Below, in pieces: positions 10,376 to 58,805 of a stretch of DNA of 64,000 nt (position 1 is its first letter; the number at the start of each line of letters is the position of its first letter). The translations under genes and the position numbers were made by a program. Source of the DNA: Bacilli bacterium (GTDB lineage: Bacteria; Bacillota_I; Bacilli_A; RF39; UBA660); assembly GCA_017460745.1 (NCBI GenBank), contig JAFUAL010000045.1, positions 75,741 through 139,740 of the forward strand, in the 5' to 3' direction. The notes under the pieces are model-generated. The model made no database searches and had not been told where the DNA came from. It saw nothing but the letters and a program-made list of their open reading frames with translations.

Positions 10376-10389
10376 TTTTGGTGAATGAT

Positions 10390-11270
10390 ATGTTCAATAA
10401 AAAGATTGATAGTCGAATTAAATTAATTTTAATTTTTTTTATTAGTTTTTTTGTTGTTATTTTATTAAAAGTTGTATATATTGAAATGATAGATTATAAA
10501 AAATTATCAAGTTTAGCAATGGATTTATGGAGTCGTGATTTACCAATTGAAGCAGATAGGGGACTTATTTTGGATAGAAATGGCGTGGTACTTGCTGATA
10601 ATATTACAACAACAAGTTTGGTTTTAGTTCCAAATCAAATTGATAACAAAGAAGAAGTTACTAAAGTTTTAGCAGATATTTTAAATGTTACTTATGAAGA
10701 AATGGAGAGCCATGTTTTTAAAAAAACTTCTATTGAAAGAGTGCATCCTGAGGGTAGAAGATTAAGTTTTGATATAGCCGATAAAATAAATTCTTATAAT
10801 TTTAGAGGAGTATATTTGGTTAAGGAATCTAAAAGATATTATCCATATGGAGAAACTTTGTCTCATGTTCTCGGCTATGTTGGAATAGATAATCAAGGAC
10901 TTGGTGGGATAGAGCTTATGTATGATGAGTATTTAACTGGAGAAAATGGTGCTATTAAATATTTCAGTGATGCTAAAGGTAATAAAATAAATTTAAGTGA
11001 AATTTACTTAGAACCAGCAAGTGGAATGAATATAACTTTAACAATTGATATAAATATTCAAATGTCGGTTGAACGTGAGCTTAATAATGTTGAAAGTACA
11101 TTAAAACCTGATAATTCTCTTGCAATTGTTGTTGATCCTAATACACTTGAAATTCTTGCAATGTCTAGTCGTCCAACTTTTAATCCAAATAATTATAAGT
11201 TATTTTCAACAGAAGTACTAAATAGAAATTTACCAATTTGGATGACATATGAACCAGGAAGTACATTTAA
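10390..11270 (+). CDS. spoVD: SpoVD-type PBP, fragment 1 (TM anchor, dimerisation domain, up to the SxxK motif)
   Basis: WSRDLPIEADRGLILDRNG, RYYPYG, NRNLPIWMTYEPGSTFK match my recollection of B. subtilis SpoVD; homology stops at the Lys codon and NIATIP* follows. Confidence 0.92.
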
Positions 11271-11289
11271 AAACATAGCAACCATACCG
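11251..11289. other. attL of element 1
   Basis: Core AA 11269-11270; arm AACATAGCAACCATACCG (11272-11289) is a 17/18 inverted match to 29290-29307. Confidence 0.9.
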
Positions 11290-11403
11290 TGACCAGTATT
11301 TATAAGGGTTTGAGAATATTAATTTATTCTCTTTTTATTTGATATTATGCTCGTTAATTTTATGAAACACGATAAAATATATTATCACGGAGGATGTGAT
11401 AGT

Positions 11404-13175: not shown

Positions 13176-13287
13176 TTTATATTGATAGAATTAAAGCTTC
13201 TATCTTTTATTTTGTCTAAATACGAGATTTTTGTTAAAAAATATGGTATACTTTTTATGTAGAGGTAATACTTTGAGGAGGTATATT

Positions 13288-14988
13288 ATGTTAGATGAAA
13301 CAATTAATAAAAGTAAAGAAGACTTAATTTCGGAAATTGAAAAAAGAGTTGAAGATAAGATTATAGAAAAATCAAATGCTGATTTGCTTATTAAACTAAT
13401 TAATAATTCTGATAGTTTATCAGAAGCAATTTCTATAGCTCAACTTGGAACTACTTATAAAAGAACGGGATTCCACTTTGATAAACGACTTGAAAAGATG
13501 GATAATACAATTAAGTATTTTAAGAAAAATAATAAGTTAAGCTTTAAAAATGATGAATCTAAATTAACTCACAAATTAATTATTGGAGATAACTATGATG
13601 CGCTATTAAACCTACTTGTTGAATATAGAAACAAAATAGATGTCATATATATAGATCCACCCTATGGAAAAGATAGTATGGGTGAGTTTGCTGAAACTAA
13701 TTATAACAATGCGATAACAAGAGATAATCTATTATCAATGCTATATCCTAGATTAGAGTTAGCAAAGCAATTATTAAATAAAGAAACTGGTGTAATTATC
13801 TGCAGCATTGATGACAGGAATCAATCTTACGTTAAATGTATGTTCGATGAAATATTTGGTGAAATAGGTTTTTTATTCGTAGCACCACGAATTACTAAAA
13901 AAGGTGGAAAATCTACAACTACTATTCAAAAAAACCATGATTATGTTTTAGCCTACGCAATGCCTGGTAATGAAATAATTTTTTCAATGGATGAAATGGA
14001 TGATTCTGGGTATAATTTAGAAGATGAATATGTAGATAAAAGAGGAAAATACAAGTTAAGTCAATGCTTAGATTATGATAGTTTATCTTATAGTAAGTCT
14101 TTAGATTACCCAATTGATTACAACGGTCAAACAATATATCCTGGTGGTGATTACGAAAAATATAAAGAACGTCAGTCTGGAAAATATAAAAAAGCAGACT
14201 GGGCATGGAGATGGAGCAAAGATAAATATGAATTTGGATTAAAAAATGGATTCATAGTTGTAAAAAATGGTAATAATGGAAAACCAAGAATATACACTAA
14301 AACTTATTTAAATTGTTCTTTAGAAAAGGATAATACTGGGAAAATATATATTAAGTATACTGATAAAGCAGGTAAATATTATACAACTTTATCTTTTATG
14401 GATAATGATTGTTCAAATGATTATGGAAAAAAGGAACTTGATAAAATATTTAAGAATTCAAATGATTTATTTAAAAATCCTAAACCAATAAATTTAATAT
14501 CAAAATTGATTAAAATGTCATGTTTAAAAGATGATGCTATTGTGTTAGATTTTTTTGCTGGTTCTGGTACTACTGGACAATCTGTTATGGAATTAAATAG
14601 AGAAGATGGCGGTAATAGAAAGTTTATTTTATGCACTAATAATGAAATTACTAATATGAATCCTAATGGTATTGCTTACGATGTAACTACTAAGAGATTA
14701 AAAAGAATAATGTCTGGTAAATGTTATGATGGCAATAAAGAATTTGATTGGATAAATAATAACGAACCCTATGGCGACAACTTAGATGTATATGAAATTG
14801 CTAAAGTTGCTAATTTTGAATCTGCAGAAAATAAAACTCCATTTGATGTTATAGATGAAACATTATATGGATTAAATAAATTTAACTCTATTAAAGATAA
14901 AATTGAATGGGTATGCAATAACTTTGAACACACTCAAAAGAATATTGAATCTGATAATGCCTGGAAAGAAAGGTTGGAGAACGAATAA
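13288..14988 (+). CDS. mod: type III RM methyltransferase (Mod)
   Basis: IYIDPPY and LDFFAGSGTT in beta order; translationally coupled to Res. Confidence 0.9.
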   Translation: MLDETINKSKEDLISEIEKRVEDKIIEKSNADLLIKLINNSDSLSEAISIAQLGTTYKRTGFHFDKRLEKMDNTIKYFKKNNKLSFKNDESKLTHKLIIGDNYDALLNLLVEYRNKIDVIYIDPPYGKDSMGEFAETNYNNAITRDNLLSMLYPRLELAKQLLNKETGVIICSIDDRNQSYVKCMFDEIFGEIGFLFVAPRITKKGGKSTTTIQKNHDYVLAYAMPGNEIIFSMDEMDDSGYNLEDEYVDKRGKYKLSQCLDYDSLSYSKSLDYPIDYNGQTIYPGGDYEKYKERQSGKYKKADWAWRWSKDKYEFGLKNGFIVVKNGNNGKPRIYTKTYLNCSLEKDNTGKIYIKYTDKAGKYYTTLSFMDNDCSNDYGKKELDKIFKNSNDLFKNPKPINLISKLIKMSCLKDDAIVLDFFAGSGTTGQSVMELNREDGGNRKFILCTNNEITNMNPNGIAYDVTTKRLKRIMSGKCYDGNKEFDWINNNEPYGDNLDVYEIAKVANFESAENKTPFDVIDETLYGLNKFNSIKDKIEWVCNNFEHTQKNIESDNAWKERLENE

Positions 14989-17093
14989 TGTTAAAGGAAG
15001 CTATTGAACTCCAACAAAATGCAGTGTCAAAATTAGTAGAATTAATTGAAGAAAGAGATGAATTAACTTTTAGAGCTCCTACTGGTAGTGGAAAAACATA
15101 TATGATGGCTGATTTTATGAACAGAATACTAGATGAAAATGAGGATGTTATATTTCTAGTTTCTACTCTATCTAAAGGAAATTTAGCACAACAAAATTTT
15201 GATAAGTTTCGAGAATATAAAGATAAAGGTAGATTTAAAAAAATAAATCCCTATTTAATATCAAGTGAAATAAGTGGTGAGGAATCATTATTTGTCCCTA
15301 CTGATTATAATGTATATATCCTACCTAGAGATTTATATAAACAAGGTGGAAGACTTATGCAAGGAGCTATGGATAACTTTTTACAAATAATGACTTTAAA
15401 TGACTGGCTTGGTGGAAAAGATAAAAAAATATATTTAATTAAAGATGAGTGTCATGTTGCTACAAACAATTTGGATACACTTTCAAATGATTACTTTGAT
15501 AAAGTTTTAAATTTTTCTGCTACTCCTAAACTAAGAAGACGTCAAATTCCTGACGTAGAAATAACTGATACTGAAGCAGTTAATGCAAAACTAATTAAAT
15601 ATATTGAATTAAGTGATGATGAAGATATTGGAGTAGCAATTAATAAATTTGAAGAAATTAAAGAAAAATACAGAGATTTATTAGGTGTTAATCCTTGCTT
15701 AATAATACAAATTTCTAATAAAGATAAAGCAGATTATGAATTAAATAACATCATTTTTCCTGAATTAAATAAAGCTGAACATCAAGACCTTAAATGGATG
15801 TTAATTGTTGATAAGGATGATAAATGCGATACAAATGATACATTTAAAGCAAAAAAATTACCTGTCTCTAAATGGAAAGATTATGCTAAAGAAAATTCTT
15901 CAACAATAGATATTATTATATTTAAGATGGTTATATCTGAAGGATGGGATATTCCTAGAGCATGTATGTTATTTCAAATAAGAGATACTCAAAGTAAGCA
16001 ATTAGATGAACAAGTTATAGGTAGAGTTAGAAGAAACCCAAGATTATTAGATTTTGAAAGTTTATCTGATGAAGCACAAAAATTAGCAATGACTTCATGG
16101 GTATGGGGAATTATTCCTGATGATGGAAAGAAAGTTAGAAATGTTAAACTTTATGATGAACCAACTGATATTACTAATAATATTCAAATTAAAACAACTG
16201 TAATAAATGATTTAAGTAAAAAGGTAAATTTCAATGTTGAAGAATATCTAAATAATAATGAAAATCATAATCATTATATGAGTATATTTGAAATGTTTAG
16301 GAAGTTAGATAAATCTGACAATGAAATCAAAAAGATGTGTTATGATTACTCTGATAATTATCAAAAATGGTGGAAGTTTAATGAAAATATTGATAAGATT
16401 AAAACCGAAAATGATAAGTATGAGTGTGATTACCTTACTAGTATGTCGTTAAGAAAAGATGATTCTGGTGAGGAAATAATATCGTCATTCCCTATTTCAA
16501 GTATGTATGTTGATAATGGTAACTATGTTAATATAAGTGATTGGGTTTGGAAAAGAACTGATGGAGCTGATAAATTTGCTTTTGATAGCGAAGCAGAACG
16601 TGAATGGGCCAGCATATTAAAGGATCTATCTACTTCACATATTAAAAAGATTACTACAGGCAAATTGAATCCAAATAGTAAATTTTATAAAAAGGATTTA
16701 TTAGGAAATGATGTACCTGAAAGATTAGAAGAATATGATAAATATTTATGGGGAAAGAATTATATATCTAATTCAGATATTAAATATGAATATTATTTAG
16801 ATGGTATTCACTCATCATATCCTGACTTTGTATTAGTAGACAATGATAATAAATTACATTTATTTGAAGTAAAGAGTGTTAATTTTTCAAATGGACAAAA
16901 TGCTAATTTTGATTCAGAAGCCTATAAAAGAAAAGTTGATGAATTAAAGAAATGTTATTTAATTGCTTCAAGTCTTACAGGTCATATATTCTATCTACCT
17001 GTACAAAGAAATGATGTTTGGAATATAATAAAACTAGAAAATGGAACTGAAACAAATTTAACTATTGAAATGTTTAAAGAATCATTTGCATAA
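14988..17093 (+). CDS. res: type III RM restriction subunit (Res)
   Basis: APTGSGKT, DECH, SATP, EGWD, QVIGRVRR helicase motifs; C-terminal YPDF...FEVKS nuclease. Confidence 0.85.
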   Translation: MLKEAIELQQNAVSKLVELIEERDELTFRAPTGSGKTYMMADFMNRILDENEDVIFLVSTLSKGNLAQQNFDKFREYKDKGRFKKINPYLISSEISGEESLFVPTDYNVYILPRDLYKQGGRLMQGAMDNFLQIMTLNDWLGGKDKKIYLIKDECHVATNNLDTLSNDYFDKVLNFSATPKLRRRQIPDVEITDTEAVNAKLIKYIELSDDEDIGVAINKFEEIKEKYRDLLGVNPCLIIQISNKDKADYELNNIIFPELNKAEHQDLKWMLIVDKDDKCDTNDTFKAKKLPVSKWKDYAKENSSTIDIIIFKMVISEGWDIPRACMLFQIRDTQSKQLDEQVIGRVRRNPRLLDFESLSDEAQKLAMTSWVWGIIPDDGKKVRNVKLYDEPTDITNNIQIKTTVINDLSKKVNFNVEEYLNNNENHNHYMSIFEMFRKLDKSDNEIKKMCYDYSDNYQKWWKFNENIDKIKTENDKYECDYLTSMSLRKDDSGEEIISSFPISSMYVDNGNYVNISDWVWKRTDGADKFAFDSEAEREWASILKDLSTSHIKKITTGKLNPNSKFYKKDLLGNDVPERLEEYDKYLWGKNYISNSDIKYEYYLDGIHSSYPDFVLVDNDNKLHLFEVKSVNFSNGQNANFDSEAYKRKVDELKKCYLIASSLTGHIFYLPVQRNDVWNIIKLENGTETNLTIEMFKESFA

Positions 17094-19097: not shown

Positions 19098-19721
19098 ATG
19101 GAATATTGTAGTAATGTTAAAAGAGGATATTGCAGGTGTTCTCTGGATGAAAAAAGAGATATGCAAAGTGTTAATCATCAAATTGAAGAATTAAAAAAAG
19201 CTGGTGTACCTGAAGAAAATATAGAATATGAATATATAAGTGGTACTAAAGAAAATAAACCTAAATTACAGGAATTACTTAACAAATGTAATGAAGGCGA
19301 TATTATTTATTGTTATGAACTTAGCAGAATATCAAGGTCATTTAAAGACTTCTTTAATACAGTTCAAATTTTAAAAGAAAAGAAATTAAAATTAGAATTA
19401 TTACTTAATGGTATAAGTGTAGATTTTACTAGAGATAAATTAGACCCATTTACTGATTTCTTTCTAAATATTATGATGGCTTTTAATAGTCTTGAAGTTG
19501 AAGTTATAAGAGAAAGAGTTCGTTCTGGTTTAGAAGGCGCTAGAAGTAAAGGAAAAATATTAGGTAGACCTAAACTTACTAAAGATGATATACCTGATAA
19601 ATTTTATAGAAAGCTTGATTTATTTAATAAAGGTGAAATTAATAAAACTGAATTTGCTAATGTTATGGGTTGGTCTAGACCTAAATTAAATAGGATTCTT
19701 GAATTAAATAATGTTAAATAA
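19098..19721 (+). CDS. small serine recombinase (resolvase/invertase)
   Basis: GYCRCS catalytic motif, SRISRS, ERVRSGL...GRP, C-terminal HTH. Confidence 0.9.
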   Translation: MEYCSNVKRGYCRCSLDEKRDMQSVNHQIEELKKAGVPEENIEYEYISGTKENKPKLQELLNKCNEGDIIYCYELSRISRSFKDFFNTVQILKEKKLKLELLLNGISVDFTRDKLDPFTDFFLNIMMAFNSLEVEVIRERVRSGLEGARSKGKILGRPKLTKDDIPDKFYRKLDLFNKGEINKTEFANVMGWSRPKLNRILELNNVK

Positions 19722-19728
19722 TATAGAA

Positions 19729-20913
19729 TTACTTTTGTAAGTTTGTAAGTTTCTTTCTATTAGTTTTATCATATTTATCTTTACATTTTTTCACATTTTG
19801 CCATTTTATAAAATTTGGAACTGACGATGATTCGTCTTTTTCTAATGCAGATAATTCATTTTGAAATAGTTGTTTTTCTTCTTCATTTTTAATTCTTTTA
19901 ATATGATTTTTAATTAATTCTTTTATATGTTCACAACAATAATTAGTTCCGTTGTTAGCAGGTTTACCGCATTTTTCACATTTTATTTTATTAACAGAGA
20001 ATAAATTAAGTAATGATTCTAAACATATACGTAATACTGTATGGTGTATTTCCGATTTCTTTGTAAAAGCATTAGGATCATAATCTGATAAGTTCATAAT
20101 GTTAGGATTATACTTATTTACTCTTAATTCAGGGTATGGTATATCAATCATATTCAAGTATATAGCTAATACTATATTAAAGTTGATAAGATAACTTGTT
20201 ATTTCATTTATAAAAGTAATATTTATTTTGTGTACATATTTGTATTCTATTTTATTTATATCAAGCTCATTATTTTCTTGATATTGAAATGCTTCTTTTT
20301 TAAATCTCTTATATAAAGAAGGAAATGTTTCAAGTTCTTTTTCAAGTTTTTGATACATATAACTTCTATTTTTATTATTTGCTAATTTTTTTAAAGTATC
20401 GTTTATATTATTTATTAAATAATAAGTTAAAGCAGTATTAATAATTGGATATAATTCAAATATGTGTGCTTCTCGATATTCTTCACAAGTACCTAGTTTT
20501 ATATCATCATATACATAACTATTTGCCGTTTGAATACCGTAAATGTTAAAAAATTCTATTATTAGTTTTTTTACATCGTTAGATAAAATTATATTTTTTA
20601 TTGATTCATCATATTGAAATAATTCGTCGGTAAAATTCATGCTATATAATTTTGAAAGTTGTTTACTATTTTTATCATATTTAGTGATTAATTTGTCGAT
20701 AGTATCATTTATTATAATTGGCTTTTTATTTAAATCACTTATTGCTTTTCCTATATTATTTATTGAATCTTTAATATCTAGAGTATTACATTTTTTAGTT
20801 TCAAGCCTTTTTATTTTTTCTCCCAATACTAAAAGTGAATCAGGAAAATCTATTTTACCTATGCTATATTTCTCATATTCTATTGTTTGTAATAGAATTT
20901 TTTTATTATTCAT
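19729..20913 (-). CDS. hypothetical protein with C-terminal Cys/His cluster
   Basis: AAGGAGG RBS before the ATG at 20913; CEKCGK...YCCEH. Confidence 0.55.
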   Translation of the reverse strand: MNNKKILLQTIEYEKYSIGKIDFPDSLLVLGEKIKRLETKKCNTLDIKDSINNIGKAISDLNKKPIIINDTIDKLITKYDKNSKQLSKLYSMNFTDELFQYDESIKNIILSNDVKKLIIEFFNIYGIQTANSYVYDDIKLGTCEEYREAHIFELYPIINTALTYYLINNINDTLKKLANNKNRSYMYQKLEKELETFPSLYKRFKKEAFQYQENNELDINKIEYKYVHKINITFINEITSYLINFNIVLAIYLNMIDIPYPELRVNKYNPNIMNLSDYDPNAFTKKSEIHHTVLRICLESLLNLFSVNKIKCEKCGKPANNGTNYCCEHIKELIKNHIKRIKNEEEKQLFQNELSALEKDESSSVPNFIKWQNVKKCKDKYDKTNRKKLTNLQK

Positions 20914-21154
20914 AATCTTCCTCCTTTTCCGAATTTTTCCGATACTATTTAATCGCTTTTTACAGGTTATTTTTTTTATGAAATAATTAATGCGTGCACA
21001 GGAAATAATGTCATTTGTGGTTGTGATTATTTCTTTATAATGCAAGTTGTCGTTAATGACATTTATTGTATATTAAAGCCACTTAAAAGTCTATTGGTAT
21101 TTTTCACCAAAAAAAATAGACTTATAAGCGAGAAAAAAATAGTAATTAAGGAGG

Positions 21155-21655
21155 ATGCTGCAATGTACGATTCTCGCTAATACATTTGTAGTAAAGAAAA
21201 ATATGGAAGAAACATTAAAAAATGGAGAATTAACTGAAAAACAAATGAGACGTTTGGAGATTTTAAGAAATTACAAACAAAACGAAAGAGCTAAAGGTTC
21301 TTATAACCCAGAAGAAGGAATATATGACGTTATTATTAGCAATATATCGTTAAGAGAAAATATTAATGGTAATCCTTTTATTCAAGTTATGTGTCTTAAT
21401 AAAGATAAAAAAGGATGTAAACGTTTATATGCTAGTTATTATCTTACTGATGGTACCGATGATTCTAGTATCACAGAATTGAGATGTCTATTAAGTGAAT
21501 ATGAACAAGATGATTTTAAAGATGAAGAAGTAATAAATGATTATTCTATTATGGAACGCATGCAAGTTTTAATTGGAGAAACAGCTCAAATTGTAATTGA
21601 AAATCAAGATGGTTTTATGAACGGAAGGCTTTATAGGGAAGTTCCTAGTGAATAA
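21155..21655 (+). CDS. DUF669-like phage ssDNA-binding protein candidate
   Basis: PEEGIYDVII...NGNPFIQV pattern; directly upstream of and overlapping the PolB gene. Confidence 0.45.
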   Translation: MLQCTILANTFVVKKNMEETLKNGELTEKQMRRLEILRNYKQNERAKGSYNPEEGIYDVIISNISLRENINGNPFIQVMCLNKDKKGCKRLYASYYLTDGTDDSSITELRCLLSEYEQDDFKDEEVINDYSIMERMQVLIGETAQIVIENQDGFMNGRLYREVPSE

Positions 21656-23483
21656 TCTTATATTTTATGACTTTGAAGTATTCTATCAAGACTGGCTATT
21701 TGTAGCTAGTCTTGATGATAACTTTATTATTATACACAATAAAAAAAGTGATTTGGAGACTTTTATAAAGAATCATATAGATTACTGGTTTGTTGGATAC
21801 AATAATTATCGTTATGACGACTTGATACTTTCAGATATTTTAAATGGAAATAACCCATATAATCTTAGTAAAAAAATCATTAATTGTGATGAGGATGATA
21901 ATACTTATTGTGTTACCTTATTACCAAATTTTAAAAGCTTAGATTTATCGCAAGATATAAAAAGAGAAAATAATAATAAACGTATAAGTCTTAAAAAAGT
22001 TATGGGAAATTTAGGAATGTCTATTATTGAAAGTTCTGTATCTTTTAGTATTGAGAGAAGTCTTACTTTAGATGAATTAGAAACTATAACAAAATATTGT
22101 TGTAATGATGTTTTAGGTGCTAAAAGATTATACGATTATCGTAGTCAATACTTTGAGGCTAAATTTGCATTAATAAAAGATTTTAATTTACCTATCGAAA
22201 CAATAAAAGTTGATGAAAACAAATTAGTATCACTTATATTAAAGTGTAAAAAGTATAATGAACCACGTGATTATCTATCAATTAATTATTGTAATAATAT
22301 CAATTTTAAATTAATACCAGATGAAGTTTTAGACTTTTATGCGAATATTGAATACAACTACTTTAATGGAACTGATTATTATGATGCTATCAATAATAGT
22401 GGTAATGTAATTGTTAAAAACAAAAAAATTGGTAAATATAAAACTAAATTATTAGGAGTACCCGCTGTATATGGTTTTGGTGGACTACATGCTTGTACTA
22501 AAGCAAGAATGTTTGTGAATAACATAATGCAAGTAGATGTTAAATCTTATTACCCAACCCTAATTATTAATAATCATTTTTATAGTAGGTCTTTTGATAA
22601 ACCAGAATTATATGACTACATATACCAGAAACGATTAAAACTAAAAGAAATTGATGAAGTAAGGTCTGACGCATATAAACTAATTTTGAATAAGGTTACG
22701 GGTTGTATGAGAAGTAATCAGATTATGCAAGATTATCATAATGGGAATAATATTGTAATAAATGGTCAATTAATACTTACACAATTAATTATAGAATTAG
22801 GCAAATACATTATTTTGCTTCAGGCAAATACTGATAGTATTACTTTTAAATATAATCCTAAGAATTATGATGAAATAATTAATATTATAAATGATTTTGA
22901 AAACAGATTTAAGTTGAAATTTGATAAAGATAGAATTAAGTTTTTATATCAAAAAAATATTAATAACTATTTCTTAATAACTGAGGATAATGAAACAAAA
23001 TTTAAGGGACAAGATTTTAAAAATTATGAATCTAATAAGTCGATGTATTACAGTAATAGTCGTAGTATTATTAGCAAATGTTTAGTTGAATATTATAAAT
23101 CAAAAACACCAATAGAAGAAACAGTCTATAAATGCTATGAAAACAATGAAATTGAAAGATTCCAATTAATTGTTAGCTATGGTAAAACATACGATAAATG
23201 TTTTTCTGAATATAACGGACAACTTATAGAGCAACCACAAAAAATCAATAGAGTTTTTGCTGTTAAAGATATTAGCTATGGATATATTTATAAATGTAAA
23301 AAGGTTGATTTACCCAAAAAATGTAAAAACATATTTGAGTATAACGGAACATTTTATCAAAGAGAAAAAATGCCAAATTCGTATGACCATTGTTACGTTT
23401 TTAATGATTCTGTGGATAAATTTGATAAGTCAATGTTAGATTTAGATTATTATATTAATCTTTGCAAAAAGGAGTTAAGGTAA
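21648..23483 (+). CDS. family B DNA polymerase (phage type) with 3'-5' exonuclease
   Basis: Exo I FYDFE, Exo [10 protein letters not shown], Exo III YCCND; Pol motifs [20 protein letters not shown]. Confidence 0.85.
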
Positions 23484-23485
23484 TT

Positions 23486-25045
23486 ATGAATAAGGATTAT
23501 TACAAAATATTAGGTGTAGATAAAAATGCAACACAAGAAGAAATTAAAAAAGCTTATAAGAAATTAGCAAAAAAGTATCACCCTGATAATAAAGAAACAG
23601 GAGATGAGAAAAAGTTTAAGGAAGTAAAAGAAGCTTATGATATTTTAAGTGATAATATGAAAAGATTTGCTTATGATGAATTATATAATAATGGCTCAAA
23701 GCAAAAAGATAATTACAATGATTCGGAACAAAAAGATAATTATAATGATAATTCTGAAAATGAAGATTTAAATGATATATTTGGACCTGATTTAGCAAAA
23801 AATCGTATTCGTGTTTTGTCATATATAGCTGAATATCTTAGTAATAAATATGATTTTAAACTATATAATGGTGTGCTATATGGTAGATTTGATACCAAAT
23901 ATATAAGCGATACGAAACAATTGGCATATAGAATAAATCAAGATATTAAATTAACTAAGAATCAATTTAAAGAACTTTTATATCAGCTGGAATTATATGC
24001 AGATAAGATTACAACCCAAATAAATAAAATCAGATTAAATAATGGTATTTTAACATTAACAGATAATGGATCCTATGAGGTAATTAAGGATGATGGAAGT
24101 TTTTGTCCATACAACCTTGATATTGATTATAACAGTAAATTAGAAGACGAAAAAGTTATTAAATTCTTAAATGATGTGAGTTGCAATAATAAAGACATTA
24201 CAAATATGCTTACAGAAATGATTGGTAGTATTTTAATAACTGAACCTAAGGCTCAATTTATGTTTTTTATATATGGTGTTAAAGGCAGAAATGGTAAAAG
24301 TACATTAACTTCTGCCCTAAGAGAATTTGTAGGAAAAGATTTGGCTTCAAATATTAGTATTACTGGTTTTAAAGATGATACTAAACTTTATTCACTTGCT
24401 GGTAAATTACTTAATATTGCCGATGATGCTGATTATGAAAAAATATATTTAGAGCGTTCACAAACCTTAAAATCGCTTGCTAGTGGTGAATTAATTTCTT
24501 GTAGACCAATATATAGAAATCCAGTAAGTTTTATGAATACAGCAACTATTATTTGTACAACAAATACAATGCCAGAATTTGCTGATAAAAGTGGTGGTAC
24601 TCGTAGAAGATTAATAATAATTGAATTTAATATGGTCGTAGACAAAAATAACAATAACCCTAACTTACTTGAAGAATTAACCACTGATTCTGCTAAAACG
24701 ACTTTTTTAAATATTGCTATTAAGGGTATGAATAGATTATTACAAAATAATTATTATATTACCGAAAATGAAACACTTACTAAAACATTAAATGAATATT
24801 ATCATAATTCTGATACAGTAAAAGATTTTATTGATAGTGGTATTAATGAAATAGAAAATCAATTTGTAGCTGATGTGTATAGTTCATACGAAACATTTTG
24901 CAGCGAAATTATTTGCAAAGAACCAGTAAAAAAGAATATCTTTGGTAGTCGCATGAAGCAATATGGTTATGTATCCAAAGTTGATACTAGACCAAGAGAT
25001 GATAGAAAGAAAGTTTCTAAAAGAATTTATGTTAAGAGTGAGTAA
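23486..25045 (+). CDS. J-domain (DnaJ) fused to P4/D5-type SF3 helicase
   Basis: DYYKILGV...KKYHPD...EAYDILSD J-domain; Walker A GRNGKST, Walker B LLNIADD, motif C ICTTN, RRRL; one continuous ORF. Confidence 0.88.
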
Positions 25046-25109
25046 TATTACATACTTACATACTTACAAACAAAAAATATTAAATATTATAAAAAAGGAG
25101 AAATTAAAA

Positions 25110-25409
25110 ATGAAAAAGATTAAAAATGAAATTGTAGAAGGAAATACAATTATAGATAATGTAGTTTCAAGCTTCTTTTTTGAAGAAGATGAAGCAGAAA
25201 AAATATTCTTAAGCAGATATATTAAAAATCGTATAGAAATGCTTAAATTGGAAGATTTAATCAACAAGAAAAGTATAGGAATAGCTAATTTTTTAGCCGA
25301 TTTTATACATTGCAAAGATTTGAATTTTATAACTAAAGTAATGGATATTACAAATAATGATTTAGATAATAAAAATATAATTTTAGGAGATGTAACAAAT
25401 GAAAAATAA
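25110..25409 (+). CDS. hypothetical protein
   Basis: AAGGAG RBS. Confidence 0.5.
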   Translation: MKKIKNEIVEGNTIIDNVVSSFFFEEDEAEKIFLSRYIKNRIEMLKLEDLINKKSIGIANFLADFIHCKDLNFITKVMDITNNDLDNKNIILGDVTNEK

Positions 25410-25917
25410 TTATTATTCTACAAATGAAATGATAGAAAATGTAAGTAAAAAAATGGAAAAAAATATAACAGATTTTGAAAAGACTTATAAAGGTATTTAT
25501 AAAGATTTAGATGAACTGACTAGTACAATAAATAATAACATGGATTGTTTATTAAGAAGTGATGTTTACAATCTTATAAAACATATTGAAAAAATTTTAC
25601 AAAGAGAAAATTCTGAACCTATTTTAAAAGAAAATACTAATTCTATTAATAATCTTAAAGTTACTTATTTAGCATTAAAAAACAAACTACAGGATCTATT
25701 TAAATCGGATAATAGAGAGTATTGCTATAAAAATGTAGACTATACAAGTCCTAATTATATAGATTTTGCAAATTTTATTTATAATACTTTGTCTCATAAA
25801 TTTACTTATGAAGAAAAGAAAATTATAGAGGATAAATTAGAAGAATTAAATAATCGTATTGAAGCTAATACTATGCCTGAATACTATTCAAATGCTTTTT
25901 GTGAAATGAAATACTAA
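25399..25917 (+). CDS. hypothetical protein
   Basis: AGGAG RBS; overlaps the previous stop. Confidence 0.5.
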   Translation: MKNNYYSTNEMIENVSKKMEKNITDFEKTYKGIYKDLDELTSTINNNMDCLLRSDVYNLIKHIEKILQRENSEPILKENTNSINNLKVTYLALKNKLQDLFKSDNREYCYKNVDYTSPNYIDFANFIYNTLSHKFTYEEKKIIEDKLEELNNRIEANTMPEYYSNAFCEMKY

Positions 25918-26072
25918 TTAAATACAATTAGTGTACTTTTTCTTAAAATTACGACATAATATTATGCTCAGAAAGCTTTGTAAAACATAATTAGATATTT
26001 TTCTAAAGGAATTATTTAATCAGTATTACATAAACTTTAATGATTAACTATCAAATGGAAAGGAATAAATTT

Positions 26073-26216
26073 ATGAATATAAATAAGATAACTGAAGTAC
26101 AAATGAAAATTATTATTAATACTAGTCTTTATAAAAAGAAAGTAATTGACGAACATACATTTTCAGCTGTAAATGATGTTCTGTTAAAAACTCTTAAAGG
26201 ACTACAAACAGCTTAA
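26073..26216 (+). CDS. 47-aa protein upstream of LSR1 (not in ORF track)
   Basis: GGAAAGGA RBS; MNINKITEVQMKIIINTSLYKKKVIDEHTF... shares a motif with 56804-57049. Confidence 0.65.
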   Translation: MNINKITEVQMKIIINTSLYKKKVIDEHTFSAVNDVLLKTLKGLQTA

Positions 26217-26246
26217 TAAAAACTTTAAGTAAGAAGGAGGAAGATT

Positions 26247-27983
26247 ATGAATTATGATGATATTGTTAGTGCAATCGCTCGTGGTGAAAAGATTTATAAT
26301 CTTCCACTTAGAGTTACTTATTATTGTAGAGTATCTACTGATAGTGATGTACAATTAAACTCATTGGATAATCAGTTAGATTATTATGAAGATTATATTA
26401 AATCAAAACCTGATTGGACATTTGTATCTGGATATGTTGAAGAAGGTGTAACTGGCGTTAGAGTTGATAAAAGACCAAGTTTTAAGCGCATGATTAGAGA
26501 TGCCAAATTGAATAGATTTGATTTAATTATTACAAAAGAGGCTTCAAGATTTGCTCGTGATTTAGAAGATTCAATTCACTATATCAGAGAATTAAAAAAA
26601 AATAATGTTGGGGTATTTTTTGAAAATCAAAATTTAAACACATTTGATTCTAACACAGAAGTATTTCTTAATATGATGTTTAATATTGCTCAAGAAGAAA
26701 GTAAAAAATTATCTGCTCGTGTTAAATTTGGCCATAGACAAGCAATAGCAAAAGGACACGTATTAGGTTCTTCAAATATAACCGGATATAAAAAAGATAA
26801 GTGTAAATTAATAATTGTTCCTGAAGAAGCTAAATTTATTAGAACAGTATTTGAATTATATGCTACTGGTGAGTATGGATTCCATAAATTAGCAAAGAAA
26901 TTAGCTACCTTAGGATATTATAATAAAAAAGGAAGATTTTATGATAAAGATACATTAAAACGTATGATTAGTAATCCAAAGTATAAGGGCTTTTATCGTG
27001 GACACACATACGAGATAATGGATTATCGAACTAAAAGAAGAAGAACTATTCCAAAGGATGAACAAGTATTAGGATCAGAAAAATGTACTGATGGTTCTAT
27101 ACCAGCTATTGTGTCTGAAGAAATATGGGATAAAGCAAACGAAATATTAAGCACAAGAACAGCTAGTTATCAAAATAATAATTATTGGTCCGGGGGATTA
27201 AAATACCCTTTTAGTTCAAAAATTTATTGTAAGGAACATAATACAAATTTTCAAAGGTCTCACGGTAATAGAAGAAAGAATAGACCTACTTGGAGTTGCG
27301 GTATGTATTTAAATTATAGACTTGAAGCTTGTGCCTCACCTGTTATTGCTGAAAAAGATTTATTAAATATTATGAATATAATAATGAATAATATTATTCC
27401 ACAAAAAAATACTATTATTGAAAGTATGTTAGAGTTGTATAAAAATATTGATATAAATAATAAATATGATGAGGAACTGAAAAGCATTGAACGAAGTATT
27501 AAAAGAATTGAAGATAAAAAGACACTTGCTCTTGATTTAGTATTAGATGGTGAGTTAAAGAAAGAAGAACTTAAAGTGCAATTTGCTAACTATGAAATAG
27601 ATTTAAAAAGACTTGTTAGAGATAAAGAAAATATATTAAAAGAAGTTGATAAAATAAAAGAAAGCAATATTAATATAGATAAAATGTCCAGGTCTATTCA
27701 AGAAGAAATTGAAGGAGGTTCTTTGGAAGAATTTGTTAGAAAGTTTGTAGATGAAATAATAGTTTCAAAAATTGATGACGATAGATATAATATAATATTA
27801 GATATATACTTAAACTTATTTGCAGAAGAAAGACCTAGAATTAAAGGCGCTAGACATATTGATGGCCCTACAGAAGATGAAATACTTTATTTAGAAAATC
27901 AGCAATGCGATAGTATTGAAATAGTAAGACCAGATAGGAATATGAATAAATTTACTTATAATGTATACGTAGAAACATTATAA
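26247..27983 (+). CDS. large serine recombinase (integrase of element 1)
   Basis: YCRVSTD, SRFARD, recombinase domain NPKYKG, zinc ribbon CKEH...WSC...C, coiled coil. Confidence 0.95.
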   Translation: MNYDDIVSAIARGEKIYNLPLRVTYYCRVSTDSDVQLNSLDNQLDYYEDYIKSKPDWTFVSGYVEEGVTGVRVDKRPSFKRMIRDAKLNRFDLIITKEASRFARDLEDSIHYIRELKKNNVGVFFENQNLNTFDSNTEVFLNMMFNIAQEESKKLSARVKFGHRQAIAKGHVLGSSNITGYKKDKCKLIIVPEEAKFIRTVFELYATGEYGFHKLAKKLATLGYYNKKGRFYDKDTLKRMISNPKYKGFYRGHTYEIMDYRTKRRRTIPKDEQVLGSEKCTDGSIPAIVSEEIWDKANEILSTRTASYQNNNYWSGGLKYPFSSKIYCKEHNTNFQRSHGNRRKNRPTWSCGMYLNYRLEACASPVIAEKDLLNIMNIIMNNIIPQKNTIIESMLELYKNIDINNKYDEELKSIERSIKRIEDKKTLALDLVLDGELKKEELKVQFANYEIDLKRLVRDKENILKEVDKIKESNINIDKMSRSIQEEIEGGSLEEFVRKFVDEIIVSKIDDDRYNIILDIYLNLFAEERPRIKGARHIDGPTEDEILYLENQQCDSIEIVRPDRNMNKFTYNVYVETL

Positions 27984-30487: not shown

Positions 30488-31597
30488 ATGGCTAAAAATA
30501 CTCAATTAGCAAATGCTAAAAAAGAAAAAGATGATGAATTTTATACTGAATATTCAGATATAGAAAAAGAAATGAATGCCTATTTAGAATATAATCCAGA
30601 TGTTTTTAAAGATAAAACTATATTACTTCCATGTGATGATCCAGAATGGAGTAATTTTACAAGATATTTTGCACAAAATTTTGAATTATTAGGATTAAAA
30701 AAATTAATTAGTACAAGTTATGCAAATGATAAAAAAAGTGCAGTGTTCGTTCAATTATCATTATTTGAGCAAGAGAGTCCTAAGTTTGATAAGAACAAAA
30801 CAAATTCACATGGTAAAATATTTACCTTAGATCGAGATACAAATAAGTCTGGTAAAATAGATATTAATGATTTAGAATGGGATTATTTAAAGGGTGATGG
30901 TGATTTTAGATCTGACGAAGTAAAAAAATTAAGAGATGAAGCAGATATTATAATAACTAATCCACCATTTTCATTATTTAGGGAGTTTCTTGCATGGTTA
31001 ATCGATGGAAAAAAACAATTTATAATTATTGGTAATGAAAACGATGCTACAACTAAAGAAACTTTTCCTTTAATTAGAGATGGAATTATATGGTTAGGTA
31101 AAAATGCTGGTGATATGGCTTTTAAAGTTCCAAAAGATTCAGAGCCAAGAGATACTAGATTTTGGATTGATGAAAAAGGTCAAAAATGGCGTAGTATGGG
31201 TAATATTTGTTGGTACACAAATATAGATTTAAAAAGAAGACATACAGAGCTAAAATTAATGACTATGGAAGATAATTTAAGATATAATAAGCCATTAATA
31301 AAAAAACTTGAAAAAGATTATGGTGATAATAAATATCCAACTTTTGATAACTATAAAGCAATAGAAGTGCCTAGATATGATGCTATACCATCTGATTACT
31401 CTGGTGTTATGGGTGTTCCAATTACTTTCTTAAAATTTCATAATCCAAAACAATTTAGGATAATTGGTCATACACATTCTGGTGATACGACAAAAGAAGT
31501 TGAAGAATTAAGAACTATTCCTTCTTTACGACATAGAGGTCATATTAATGGGAAACAAATTTATGATAGAATTTTAATTCAGAAAGTAGATGAATAA
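30488..31597 (+). CDS. adenine-specific DNA methyltransferase, M.EcoRI family
   Basis: [38 protein letters not shown]. Confidence 0.88.
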
Positions 31598-32786
31598 TAT
31601 TATGGAAACAATTTTAAGAACAGATTTAAAAATTAAAGATATTTGTGAGGGATTTCAATATAGTGAAAGTGAAGAAAAAGGATTATTTGGTTGGAGTGGC
31701 AAATTAACAATTCAACCAGAATATCAAAGAAATTATATTTATGCAAATGGAAAAGATGATGTTGCAGTAATTGATTCTTTGTTAAAAGGTTATCCAATAG
31801 GTTTAATATATTTTGTTGAATCAGAAAAAGATAAATATGAGATATTAGATGGTCAACAAAGAATTACTAGTATTGGTAGATATATTACAAATTGGTTTGC
31901 TTGGATTGATGATTCAGGTATTCCATATAAGTTTAATTCATTACCAGAAGATAAACAAAAAAAGATTTTAGAAACAGAATTAACAATATATATATGTAAA
32001 GGTGAAGAATCAGAAATAAAAGAATGGTTTAAAACTATTAATATTGCAGGTAAACCATTAAATGATCAAGAATTATTAAATGCTATTTATAGTGGAAGTT
32101 TTATTTCAAAGGCTAAAGAAGTATTTAGTAATAGTCAAAATTCTAATCTTCATAAATGGCTAAGTTATATGAAAGTTGATGTTAAAAGACAAGGATTACT
32201 TGAGGTTGCACTTGGTTGGGTTTCTAAAGATTGGGAAAAAGATGGAAATTTAGAGCATTATATGGCAGAACATAGAAAAGATGACAATATTAATGAATTA
32301 AATTCTTATTTCAATGATGTAATTAATTGGGTATCAACAGTCTTTACTGATGTAGAAGATGAAATGCAAAGTGTTAATTGGGGTAAAATGTATGAAAAGT
32401 ATCATAAAAATCCATATAATTCTCAAGAAGTTTCAAAAAAACTTCATGAGCTATATAGTGATTTCTTTGTCAAAGATAGAAAAGGATGCTATGAATATAT
32501 TTTAAATGGTTGTAAGGCAGAAGATATAAAATTATTAAATATTAGATTATTTGATGAACCAGTAAAAAAGACTGTATATGCTAAACAAACTCAGGAAGCA
32601 AAATCAAAAGAAATATCAAATTGTCCTATGTGTGTATTAGAGGGTTTGAGCAACAAAAATAAAATATGGGAATATAAAGATATGGATGCAGATCATGTAA
32701 CTGCTTGGAGTAAAGGTGGATCTACTGATATTTCAAACTGCCAAATGTTATGTAGAACACATAATCATATCAAAGGAAATAGATAA
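31590..32786 (+). CDS. DUF262 (GmrS-like) + HNH endonuclease
   Basis: [19 protein letters not shown]; C-terminal CPMC...DADH...GGST...NCQMLC..HN..K. Confidence 0.88.
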
Positions 32787-35691: not shown

Positions 35692-35820
35692 ATGAAAATT
35701 TTATTATTTATAGGTATTGCACTAGTAATTTTATTAGTGCTTTTTATTTATTCTGCTTGTGTTATTTCAAGTAGATGTTCACGAGAGGAGGAAAAGATAG
35801 AAAGTGAAAAAATTAAGTAA
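35692..35820 (+). CDS. 42-aa membrane peptide (not in ORF track)
   Basis: GGAGG RBS; MKILLFIGIALVILLVLFIYSACVISSRCSREEEK... Confidence 0.55.
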   Translation: MKILLFIGIALVILLVLFIYSACVISSRCSREEEKIESEKIK

Positions 35821-38254
35821 AATATTATTTATGTTCATTGGTGCTTTTGTAACTATGGTTGTTGGTTTACAAAATGTTTTTGCAGCTACACTTCAAATGG
35901 ATTTTACTGGTTATTGGTATGAACGAAGTGATAATGGATCTAATTATTCATCTTGGAAACTAGAAAACTATTATGTAGATGGTAATGTAGCATTTTGTAT
36001 TGAGCCAGGTATTCCAGAAGGGACTACCATGCAACAAGGAACTTGGGAAGATACTGGATTATCTAATAATATAAAACAAAGAGTTTTATTACTTGCATAT
36101 TATGGTTATCAATACAATGGACATCAAACTCAAGCATATCGAGCAGCTACTCAAGCACTTATTTGGGAAACTATATTAGGTGGTAATACTCGTGTTACTT
36201 ATAGCACTGAAAGATATGGTGCTGGTACACCTTATAATGTGGATGCTGAAAGAAATGTAATAAATTCTTTAGTTGCAAATCATTATACAAAACCTAGTTT
36301 TAATGGTACAACAGTTACTGCTCAAGTTGGTACTTCTGTTACTTTAACTGATACAAATAATGTTTTAAGTAATTATGAAGTTTATGCATCCAATAATGCT
36401 AATGTTAGTATTAATGGAAACCAATTAACAATTACCCCTACTGAGATAGGTGATGTAACTCTACAATTTGTTAAAAAGCAAATTTATAGTAGATCATATT
36501 TAATTTATTATGGTGATGGCATTCAAAATATGCTTAGTGGTGGAAATGTAGATCCAGTTTATTTCTCTGTAAATCTAAAAGCATTAGGTGGTAAAGTTGA
36601 AATAAATAAAGTGGATTCTGCTAGTATGACTACTACACCACAAGGAGAGGCATCTTTATCTGGTGCTAAATTTAATATAATAGATAAATTTGGTAATGTA
36701 ATTCAAACTTTAACTACTGATGAAAATGGTTATGCTATTAGTGATTACTTACCATATTTTGGACAATATACATTAAAAGAAGTTAGTCCAAGCAATGGCT
36801 ACTTATTAAGTGATGAAGTCGTTCCTTTTGATAGTACCAAAGATAGTATGCTAACTTATGTAAAATTTAAGGAAGATGTCATTACTAGAGATTATGAATT
36901 TACTAAAATTTATTCATCTGATAAAACTGGTATTATGACACCAGAAGTTGGTATAAAATTTGGTATATATGATAAGAACAATAACTTAGTTCAAGAGAAA
37001 ACTACTGATAGTGAGGGTAAAATATATGTTACCTTACCTTATGGAGCTTATACTTTAAAACAATTAACTTCTACCCATAATTTTGAAAAGATGGAAGATT
37101 ATAAATTTGAAGTTCGTGAAGTTGGTGATACTATCAATAAAGTTTTTGGTAATGCAGAAATAACTGCTAAATTAAAAGTAATTAAAGTAGATTCAGAAAC
37201 TGGACAAGTAATTGAAAGATCTAATATTAAATTTAAAATATTTGATGTTAAAAATAATGAATATGTATCTCAAACAATTACTTATCCTACTGCTAAGACT
37301 ATTGATACTTTTGAAACTGATGATAATGGTATTTTAATAACACCTTATCCATTAAAAAGTGGTACTTACTACTTAGAAGAAGTTGATCAAGTTATAGATG
37401 GTTATTTATGGAATGATAAATCAGTAGAATTTGAGATTGGAGAAGATGCTAATTTAATTACTGATAATGAATTTGGAATCTTATTTGAAGTAAAATTTGA
37501 AAATACACCAGTTAAAGGTAGTATTGAAATAAATAAAACTGGTGAAGAAGTTGAATTAACTGATAATGGTTATGTATATACTAAGATTAATCTTGAGGGA
37601 GTTAAAATTGGTTTATATGCTAGTGATAATATATATGATGCTTTAGGTAATTTAAAGTATAAGAAAGATACCTTAATCAAGGAATTAATAACAGATGAAA
37701 ATGGTTATGTGTCTTTAGATAATTTGTATTTAGGTAAATACTATTTACAAGAAATATCTACTATAAATAACCATGTATTAGATAAAACTAAATATTCATT
37801 TGAATTAAAATATAAGGATCAATATACTTCAGTCGTAACATTTACAATTACACTAGAGAATCATTTACCAAAAGGAACTTTAGAATTTACTAAAACTGAT
37901 TTTAGTACAAGTGAAACTCTACCAAATACTCTTATAGAAATTTATACTGAAAACGATGAATTAGTTTATTCTGGTCGTACTGATGAAAATGGGAAAATTG
38001 TTATTACTGATTTACCAGTTGGCAAATACTACATTTTAGAAAAGGAAGCACCAGAAAACTATAAACTTAATGAAGAAAAAATGTTTTTTGAAATAACTGA
38101 AGATGGTCAAGTTGTTCAATGTACTATGACAGATGAAGTGTTTGAAGTTCCAAGCACTGGCAAATCAAATATAAATTATGAATTAATTGGAAGTATTGTA
38201 TTAGTAATATCTGGTTTAGGATTGTGTATATATGGCATCAAAAAAAGAAAATAG
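35804..38254 (+). CDS. thioester-domain adhesin with SpaA/CnaB repeats and sortase signal
   Basis: Signal peptide, AFCIEPG + ATQALIW (Cys-Gln), repeated G.Y.L.E..P.GY, VPSTG + TM + KKRK. Confidence 0.85.
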   Translation: MKKLSKILFMFIGAFVTMVVGLQNVFAATLQMDFTGYWYERSDNGSNYSSWKLENYYVDGNVAFCIEPGIPEGTTMQQGTWEDTGLSNNIKQRVLLLAYYGYQYNGHQTQAYRAATQALIWETILGGNTRVTYSTERYGAGTPYNVDAERNVINSLVANHYTKPSFNGTTVTAQVGTSVTLTDTNNVLSNYEVYASNNANVSINGNQLTITPTEIGDVTLQFVKKQIYSRSYLIYYGDGIQNMLSGGNVDPVYFSVNLKALGGKVEINKVDSASMTTTPQGEASLSGAKFNIIDKFGNVIQTLTTDENGYAISDYLPYFGQYTLKEVSPSNGYLLSDEVVPFDSTKDSMLTYVKFKEDVITRDYEFTKIYSSDKTGIMTPEVGIKFGIYDKNNNLVQEKTTDSEGKIYVTLPYGAYTLKQLTSTHNFEKMEDYKFEVREVGDTINKVFGNAEITAKLKVIKVDSETGQVIERSNIKFKIFDVKNNEYVSQTITYPTAKTIDTFETDDNGILITPYPLKSGTYYLEEVDQVIDGYLWNDKSVEFEIGEDANLITDNEFGILFEVKFENTPVKGSIEINKTGEEVELTDNGYVYTKINLEGVKIGLYASDNIYDALGNLKYKKDTLIKELITDENGYVSLDNLYLGKYYLQEISTINNHVLDKTKYSFELKYKDQYTSVVTFTITLENHLPKGTLEFTKTDFSTSETLPNTLIEIYTENDELVYSGRTDENGKIVITDLPVGKYYILEKEAPENYKLNEEKMFFEITEDGQVVQCTMTDEVFEVPSTGKSNINYELIGSIVLVISGLGLCIYGIKKRK

Positions 38255-58800: not shown

Positions 58801-58805
58801 ACTTG
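58762..58805. other. attR of element 2
   Basis: Arm TGTTCGTGTATTGATACAAAG 58762-58782; core AA 58784-58785; spoVD resumes with PGFVKLG. Confidence 0.88.

Follow-up and report, generated by a model that had tools for sequence, protein, structure and literature searches.

A J-domain fused to a predicted SF3 helicase in Bacilli: an architecture that recalls polyomavirus large T

Introduction

What is a J-domain doing at the front of a helicase? The question is raised by a 64,000-nucleotide stretch of DNA from an uncultured Bacilli bacterium of the pig gut (GenBank assembly GCA_017460745.1, contig JAFUAL010000045.1, positions 75,741 to 139,740), which we call the window. Here a single open reading frame (ORF) at 23486..25045 encodes a J-domain, a flexible linker and a predicted superfamily 3 (SF3) helicase. 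The same parts stand in the same order in the large T antigen of simian virus 40 (SV40), namely an N-terminal J-domain with a His-Pro-Asp (HPD) tripeptide, a flexible linker and an SF3 (AAA+) hexameric initiator helicase, and in both cases the gene belongs to a small DNA element that relies on its host in other respects.

In this work, we show that the fusion is real and under selection, and that it belongs to a small lineage in which it is evidently dispensable; it is apparently undescribed. On balance we lean towards reading it as a co-chaperone that acts in cis, bringing host DnaK to the self-loading helicase of the element. It would be an analogue of large T and not a member of its family.

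Results

Parts of the fusion protein

At E<=0.01 only three Pfam families match the 519-residue protein: DnaJ, DUF5906 and, over residues 233-381, a VapE-like family. An AlphaFold2 (AF2) model built on a 16-sequence alignment has a mean predicted local distance difference test (pLDDT) score of 82.8 and consists of a four-helix J-domain, a disordered linker and a confident helicase body. The parts are as follows.

23486..25045, plus strand: J-domain/SF3-helicase fusion gene, a single ORF of 519 amino acids plus stop, with an ATG start
23470..23474, plus strand: Shine–Dalgarno-like AGGAG, read from the sequence, 11 nucleotides upstream of the ATG of the fusion
23495..23677, plus strand: J-domain, residues 4-64 (Pfam PF00226, E = 1.6e-24, 86 bits against a cut-off of 27.8)
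23579..23587, plus strand: HPD tripeptide H32-P33-D34 (codons CAC CCT GAT), between helices II and III
23684..23767, plus strand: disordered acidic/polar linker, residues 67-94 (AF2 pLDDT <50 over residues 70-91)
23768..24181, plus strand: N-terminal D5_N-like collar domain, residues 95-232, confident in the AF2 model and aligning with the SaPI5 primase-helicase and with D5/E5
24269..24607, plus strand: SF3 ATPase core, residues 262-374 (Pfam DUF5906, PF19263, E = 1.6e-17, 64.6 bits against a cut-off of 27.6)
24275..24304, plus strand: Walker A
24422..24427, plus strand: Walker B (DD)
24773..25042, plus strand: C-terminal helix/strand domain, residues 430-519, placed by the phmmer alignment to 7ola and by Pox_D5 matches on relatives

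An earlier note on this DNA, made from its letters alone, had described a complete J-domain with an intact HPD, an acidic tandem-repeat linker and a P4/D5-type SF3 helicase within one ORF, and had suggested structure prediction as a check. All three parts hold up in the sequence and in the predicted structure, and the HPD codons lie at exactly the coordinates given in the note.

The J-domain and its linker

The J-domain also matches the Escherichia coli DnaJ chains 1xbl and 5nro (E = 2e-19, phmmer) and the J-domain structure of Thermus DnaJ (E about 1e-19). Its modelled helices cover residues 5-9, 17-31, 41-54 and 57-72, with block-mean pLDDT values of 79-92 across residues 1-60. Pfam recognizes no glycine/phenylalanine-rich (G/F) region, zinc-finger or DnaJ C-terminal domain in the fusion protein, and the J-domain is followed by a linker with many N, D, K, E and Q residues. 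By its predicted fold, its HPD and its lack of class A and B domains the protein would be placed in class C (type III) of the J-domain proteins.

The linker contains a tandem duplication that is visible at the DNA level, with a 27-nucleotide copy (23702-23728, encoding QKDNYNDSE, residues 73-81) followed by a 30-nucleotide copy (23729-23758, residues 82-91). The duplication is absent from the Tandem Repeats Finder list at score 40. Both the length and the sequence of the linker vary across four of the fusions (P0001-P0004, described below).

We compared the window with L001, a related locus from another genome, using the Nei–Gojobori method. The ratio of non-synonymous to synonymous substitution rates (dN/dS) is about 0.10 in the J-domain, 0.16 in the collar, 0.065 in the ATPase core and 0.17 in the C-terminal domain; these figures come from one pair only and are rough, because synonymous sites are near saturation (proportion of synonymous differences, pS, 0.68). 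Between the same two sequences the linker has just 22% identity over 18 alignable codons, and its lengths differ. The contrast in constraint is clear despite the saturation: the J-domain is under purifying selection while the linker drifts.

The fusion J-domains are 62-75% identical to the J-domains of Bacilli class-A DnaJ proteins that have the same shared stretch, and 56-68% identical to the host's own DnaJ. In the fusion, the J-domain starts at the native N-terminus of DnaJ. Certain changes, in YYKILG and EIKKAY, are common to all fusion J-domains and absent from the aligned cellular DnaJ proteins, and these shared substitutions point to a single origin of the fusion. From the sequence comparison we infer that the captured piece was the 5′ end of a dnaJ from another Bacilli lineage, not that of the present host. 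The source genome (1.47 Mb in 65 contigs, 93% complete; the G+C content of the window is 20-31%) has one dnaK, which adjoins dnaJ, and its only J-domain besides that of this DnaJ is the one in the fusion.

A further observation concerns the point where the helicase begins. Its first conserved residues, 95-100 (23768-23785), read DLNDIF, or NLNxIF in forms that lack the J-domain, and are similar to the last part of the G/F region of cellular DnaJ, where the DIF motif lies, as seen in the DnaJ fragments P0269, P0270 and P0306. The likeness could be due to chance, or to microhomology that aided the original recombination between dnaJ and the helicase gene.

The helicase

The best structural match to the model in Foldseek is the SaPI5 primase-helicase 7OLA (E = 7e-20, TM-score 0.57-0.67, identity 21-22% over 361-430 columns), and the next are African swine fever virus PrimPol, mpox E5 and vaccinia D5. 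The same relationship is found with phmmer, which aligns residues 220-515 with residues 478-768 of the 7ola chain (E = 5.9e-17). In the ESM Atlas structure rows the aligned helicase part is named D5_N. The Pfam families D5_N and Pox_D5 miss the threshold of E 0.01 on the fusion protein itself, yet reach it on relatives; in two of these (P0123 and P0125) the Pox_D5 match lies at the place equivalent to the C-terminal domain of the fusion.

Ten residues are invariant in the 16-sequence alignment: G264, G267, G270, K271, T273, D313, D314, N360, R374 and R375. We assign these to Walker A, Walker B, motif C/sensor and the arginine finger. The C-terminal domain is probably the winged-helix DNA-binding end found in D5 and SaPI-Rep helicases, and by analogy may bind the origin. 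With its ATPase core, collar and winged-helix-like C-terminus, the protein has the predicted make-up of a D5/P4-type SF3 helicase, which by comparison with 7OLA and the D5 relatives would form hexamers, unwind DNA and bind an origin.

What stands in front of this helicase varies. More distant relatives (30-40% identity) begin with about 200 additional residues in which Prim-Pol matches are weak, and some others carry strong Prim-Pol or DnaG-type primase domains at the N-terminus. Different accessory domains thus occupy the N-terminal slot, which agrees with the suggestion of the earlier note that the J-domain sits where a primase domain is often found.

The fusion is present in independent samples

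The fusion is not an artefact of assembly. A 1.8-kb stretch that contains it is present in 19 sequencing runs from 13 studies, which are gut, feces and manure metagenomes, mostly from pig. When five runs (two studies) that are possible sources of the assembly are set aside, 14 runs from 11 studies still hold the stretch. In run X6, which is possibly one of these sources, one contig spans the whole stretch with 2 differences, and in X8 one contig spans 23300-24843 with 1 difference. X12 connects the end of the upstream polymerase gene with the J-domain and the first part of the linker. In X10 there are two overlapping pieces, one that runs from the polymerase end into the J-domain and one that begins in the J-domain, crosses the linker and reaches the helicase. 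No indels or alternative joints were seen in the contigs of these four runs. The same protein, or variants of it, is also called on several independent contigs. As for expression, none of the runs listed as containing the stretch is an RNA run.

Distribution of the fusion

A word-indexed protein search gave 1364 matches. The best 120 comprise 102 DnaJ proteins of cellular type, 14 proteins with DUF5906 and no J-domain, and four with both DnaJ and DUF5906. These four fusions are P0001-P0004 (71-100% identity). We then combined an exhaustive search of 1.84 billion cluster representatives with a local J-domain hidden Markov model (HMM) scan of 162 related proteins, which added a 118-residue J-helicase fragment (P0169). 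The scan revealed no second J-helicase lineage among the 162 representatives; it also picked out P0122, an unrelated protein with six J-domains and no helicase. Two more J-helicases (P0389 and P0390) came from cluster look-ups, for a total of seven distinct sequences in five clusters. One member is present in NCBI, as a ‘hypothetical protein’.

Split forms were sought by comparing residues 1-130 with shorter proteins. Among the best 120 of 407 matches, the nine that were inspected are DnaJ fragments or unrelated J-proteins, and P0169, already picked out by the HMM scan, is the sole J-helicase fragment that we recognized.

The fusion is also scarce in collections of contigs and genomes. Four related loci were found in a genome-contig collection, one of them with a J-domain, and the best 80 of 148 relatives in a metagenome-contig collection all lack one; L001 alone carries the fusion among these 84 loci. 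In a viral-contig collection, 48 pattern-matched stretches included no relative, and the fusion was not found in phage records. A plasmid collection likewise contains no fusion, the best match being 37% identical and spanning only helicase residues 115-499. In 40 related genomes there is no helicase of this kind except for a 25% match in G033, and the remaining matches are cellular DnaJ. The nearest ESM Atlas clusters, in a set limited to clusters of at least 50 members, show no pairing of DnaJ with DUF5906. Our literature searches brought up no bacterial or phage protein that joins a J-domain to a replicative helicase, of SF3 or any other type, although the architecture might be tabulated in some survey. 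Fusions can hide inside clusters, because P0010, which lacks a J-domain, represents the family of the query at 50% clustering. Our searches demonstrate that the fusion is rare, not that it is absent elsewhere.

Among the observations that the earlier note had named as speaking against its reading are that the fusion be unique to this assembly and that its HPD not be conserved among homologues. The seven sequences from many runs dispose of the first, and the second is answered by an HPD that is present in 6 of the 7, within a J-domain that evolves under constraint.

We built a maximum-likelihood tree of the region that the fusions share with their closest relatives (16 rows, none dropped, midpoint root). 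In this tree the J-bearing sequences form a grade, with P0004 followed by P0003 and then by P0001 together with P0002.

A probable replication trio in a small integrative element

The neighbours of the fusion gene help to place its helicase. The features that are relevant here are listed below.

21155..21655, plus strand: single-stranded DNA-binding protein (SSB)-like gene, first of a trio (phrog_378, E = 2.7e-5; homologues at the same position in L001, L002 and L004)
21648..23483, plus strand: gene for a DNA polymerase like those of family B (PolB), directly upstream of the fusion (phrog_1252 ‘DNA polymerase’, E = 2e-102)
26247..27983, plus strand: large serine recombinase (Pfam Resolvase, Recombinase and Zn_ribbon_recom)
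19098..19721, plus strand: small resolvase-type recombinase, on the opposite side of the module (Pfam Resolvase, E = 2e-29)
19729..21045, minus strand: ORF of 438 amino acids, divergent from the trio, with no Pfam or PHROG match
25048..25068: perfect tandem repeat, 2.6 copies of TTACATAC, 3 nucleotides past the helicase stop and ahead of the ribosome-binding site of the next gene

The stop codon of the polymerase gene lies at 23481-23483 and the ATG of the fusion follows 2 nucleotides further on, which shows that the two genes are tightly coupled. The SSB-like, polymerase and helicase genes stand in the same order in the window and in four loci from other genomes (L001-L004), and on the short contig L015 the end of the polymerase gene adjoins the helicase. 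The spacing from polymerase stop to helicase start is 2-8 nucleotides, with or without a J-domain. A tyrosine or large serine integrase lies about 0.2-0.4 kb downstream of the helicase in L001-L004. The recombinase upstream of the trio is a small resolvase in L002-L004 and of tyrosine type in L001. The conservation of the trio and its flanking recombinases in five loci points strongly to a role of the helicase in replication.

Other parts of the flanks differ between loci. A minus-strand ORF of 362-441 amino acids is found at the position equivalent to that of the 438-residue ORF in L001, L002 and L004; no similarity between the 438-residue ORF and these positional counterparts was detected by tblastn at 1e-5. 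Taken together, these features suggest a small integrative element (19098-27983) with the trio as its replication core, nested here in a conjugative element. The serine recombinase at 26247-27983 is the probable integrase of the small element, and the helicase is probably its replicative, self-loading and origin-binding SF3 enzyme of D5/SaPI-Rep type. We recognized no primase domain anywhere in the small element or in L001-L004.

The polymerase has no Pfam match even at E 10 and no sequence match in the PDB, and its AF2 model (pLDDT 44) is unusable. Its phage homologues are annotated as ‘DNA polymerase’ or ‘B-like’. The residues invariant in five sequences (D8/E10, N52-D58, Y150/D154, D297/S300/Y302/P303, K344-G352 and T395/D396/S397) resemble the exonuclease and polymerase motifs of PolB. 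Pipolins and casposons, self-replicating integrative elements with a family-B polymerase, were considered for comparison; here the PolB-like call comes from phrog_1252 and the phage annotations, with no Pfam match. Firmicute siphophages have distant homologues of both polymerase and helicase, at 26-29% identity; Paenibacillus phage Wanderer and Staphylococcus phage phiST9-C, for example, carry the pair in their replication regions.

No convincing iterons mark an origin of replication, and there are just two candidates. One is the TTACATAC repeat, which could be a regulatory or origin element and has no counterpart at the same place in L001. The other is a 14-nucleotide inverted repeat (21082-21128, 93% complementary, with a 19-nucleotide spacer) between the 438-residue ORF and the SSB-like gene, which is also a candidate operator of the replication operon.

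Comparison with known systems

The earlier note had called this architecture large-T-like, and had proposed that it was reached by convergence. The order of J-domain, linker and SF3 helicase bears out the first claim in part, but the origin-binding domain and the zinc domain of large T were not detected in the fusion protein (Pfam, E 0.01). There are other differences. The ATPase belongs to the branch of D5, P4 and SaPI Rep, with no large-T chain among the Foldseek rows listed, and the closeness of the J-domain to Bacilli DnaJ points to an independent and probably recent capture. A J-domain that resembles a recent copy of Bacilli class-A DnaJ, on a helicase of the D5 clade and not of the large-T clade, supports the claim of convergence. 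Polyomaviruses use the host polymerase, whereas the bacterial element brings its own. We also considered and rejected membership of the polyomavirus large-T family, since Pfam finds no large-T domains and the closest structures belong to helicases of the D5 clade. What the fusion shares with large T is an architecture and a presumed mechanism, independently reached.

The closest relationship, in both sequence and fold, is with the SaPI5 primase-helicase and SaPI Rep (7OLA, 7OM0) and the P4-family helicases, and extends from the collar to the C-terminal domain. SaPI Rep is likewise the initiator helicase of an integrative element. In spite of this, identity to the SaPI5 protein is low, and the fusion has a J-domain in the N-terminal slot where relatives have primase domains; 7OLA is itself titled a primase-helicase.

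Other mobile elements also encode J-domains of their own, such as Rki of phage RB43 and the DnaJ-like proteins of mycobacteriophages and jumbo phages, and a passage of PMC3486835 describes how the phage-encoded J-domain of Rki engages host DnaK. These differ from the fusion in being stand-alone proteins or full copies of DnaJ. We found J-like genes in 43 phage records, with no annotated match inside a primase or helicase gene, and two unannotated matches that we inspected are ordinary DnaJ genes in high-GC DNA. A different piece of DnaJ has been built into a phage replication enzyme in the HMO-2011-type phages, whose DNA polymerases hold a partial DnaJ central domain, according to a section of PMC9038755. 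The polymerase there is of family A, and its insert is the zinc finger (CXXCXGXG) of DnaJ and not the J-domain. As it has no HPD, such an insert would not trigger the Hsp70 ATPase directly.

Discussion

The domains and their order, their conservation, the selection acting on them and the fact that the host has DnaK form the observed basis for the co-chaperone reading. From these we infer that DnaK binds, what its client would be and that replication is affected. On this reading, the 5′ end of a Bacilli class-A dnaJ, consisting of the start codon and J-domain without the G/F, zinc and C-terminal domains, would have been inserted in frame before the helicase. A flexible tether of about 25 residues would then hold one J-domain on each subunit of the ring. 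The HPD of this J-domain would trigger ATP hydrolysis by DnaK, the only Hsp70 of the host, and the hydrolysis would fasten DnaK to the helicase itself or to its direct partners. There it may aid the assembly of subunits into the origin complex, their activation in it or their release from it. The protein would belong to class C of the J-proteins, with the helicase itself as the part that targets the client.

There are well-known precedents for the use of chaperones in this way. DnaJ, DnaK and GrpE release lambda P from DnaB, and DnaJ and DnaK activate P1 RepA. A passage of PMC3486835 adds that the J-domain of large T serves viral DNA replication and that lambda, P1 and P2 need DnaK and DnaJ.

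Several findings weigh against this reading. The fusion is limited to one shallow clade, and the deeper relatives all lack a J-domain. Within the clade, the J-less P0005-7 are nested among the J-bearing sequences, with branch supports of 97-100, and are 81-84% identical to P0001/P0002 over the shared part. The fewest changes that explain this nesting are one gain and one loss, which makes the J-domain an accessory that the helicase does not require; the J-less forms show that the enzyme can work, or at least persist, without it. That they lack the J-domain is concluded from consistent calls of a 428-residue gene on many contigs, and from the J-less loci L002-L004, in which the helicase begins right after the polymerase gene stops. 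One of the fusions, P0003 (the copy in L001), has HSD in place of HPD through a single change of CCT to TCT. The saturation of synonymous sites limits the weight that the dN/dS values can bear. An acidic/polar linker is a poor DnaK-binding sequence, and we know of no helicase of the D5, P4 or SaPI type that depends on chaperones.

Some of these findings would also be expected if the fusion were a nearly neutral accident, in which a 5′ fragment of dnaJ was captured by illegitimate recombination, tolerated and is now being lost. The single shallow clade, the loss in P0005-7 and the HSD variant all fit such a history, as do the lack of a second J-helicase lineage among the 162 representatives and of a DnaJ and DUF5906 cluster among the nearest ESM Atlas clusters. 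What it does not account for is a J-domain with a dN/dS as low as that of the helicase, beside a linker that drifts freely. The HPD is retained in nearly all of the sequences, including P0390, the cluster-mate of the HSD-bearing P0003, and the J-domain is modelled with confidence, so we think an accident improbable. If the J-domain is instead useful, its target need not be the helicase. It could manipulate the host through DnaK, by altering proteostasis, the stress response or a defence that depends on DnaJ and DnaK, with the helicase serving as an early-expressed carrier of six J-domains per ring. The helicase family does work without a J-domain. Moreover, Rki of RB43, presented in a passage of PMC3486835 as the only characterized phage J-protein, stabilizes sigma-32 via DnaK and does not act in replication, and PMC12169576 describes a bacterial nucleotide-binding leucine-rich repeat (NLR)-like defence protein that uses DnaJ for phage sensing. 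However, a host-directed J-protein needs no fusion, whereas the in-frame fusion and its flexible tether have been kept through roughly 25% sequence divergence, and no free J-protein gene occurs near the 83 related J-less helicase loci. We regard manipulation of the host as an unlikely purpose.

A role outside replication altogether, as a D5/VapE-type ATPase of interference or defence that uses DnaK for sensing or killing, is brought to mind by the DUF5906/VapE-like ATPases found in many islands of unknown role. Against this, the helicase always comes third after the SSB-like gene and the polymerase in five loci, the polymerase and helicase pair recurs in the replication regions of Firmicute siphophages and the closest solved structure is a replication initiator helicase. 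We consider it very improbable.

The co-chaperone reading has a broader form, which we put forward only tentatively. Bacterial mobile elements may have arrived independently at a permanent union of a J-domain, which recruits Hsp70, with a self-loading SF3 initiator helicase; the chaperone-assisted assembly or activation of SF3 rings might then be a general weak point that has been solved alike in two domains of life. If so, nature has provided J-plus and J-minus helicases that are >80% identical (P0001/P0002 and P0005-7), a matched pair for studying the action of Hsp70.

For the J-domain of large T, it has been difficult to tell a role in replication apart from those in cell-cycle control. In bacteria there is no retinoblastoma (Rb) pathway to confound the study of a J-SF3 helicase, whose partner would be the well-studied DnaK and which has close J-less relatives. 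If the J-domain does act on the helicase, the action of Hsp70 on a ring helicase could be studied in a simple system. Bacteria, for which few are known, would gain another class-C J-protein whose client is defined, and the fusion would document the recent capture of a host chaperone module by the replication machinery of a mobile element. If the J-domain is dispensable, the fusion is a mere curiosity of domain shuffling.

Surroundings of the small element

A gene for a penicillin-binding protein (PBP) with a PASTA domain is split in the window, with its N-terminal part at 10378-11292 and its transpeptidase/PASTA part at 58772-59650. The 3′ end of a second large serine recombinase gene (57082-58800) overlaps the resumed PBP reading frame. 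Conjugation genes are found at about 39-57 kb, and include a type IV secretion system (T4SS) pilin, a VirB4-like ATPase, an M23 peptidase, a MobL relaxase and a coupling protein. The split gene, the recombinase and the conjugation genes together indicate that a conjugative element of about 47 kb has integrated into this cell-wall gene, and that the fusion lies within it.

Among the cargo of this element (30488-32786 and 13231-17093) are an EcoRI-type adenine methylase followed by a protein with GmrSD_N and HNH domains, and an N6/N4 methylase followed by a ResIII-type helicase. Two surface proteins with thioester domains and SpaA repeats are also encoded, at 35804-38254 and from 61516 to the end of the window, along with a sortase at 38232-38870. 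Outside the conjugative element there is a group of three genes, for a 421-residue protein with an FtsH-like AAA domain and an M41 peptidase domain (3674-4939), a protein with a Cas4-like nuclease domain (5162-5599) and a DUF2779 protein (5726-6535), which is a possible defence or repair cluster.

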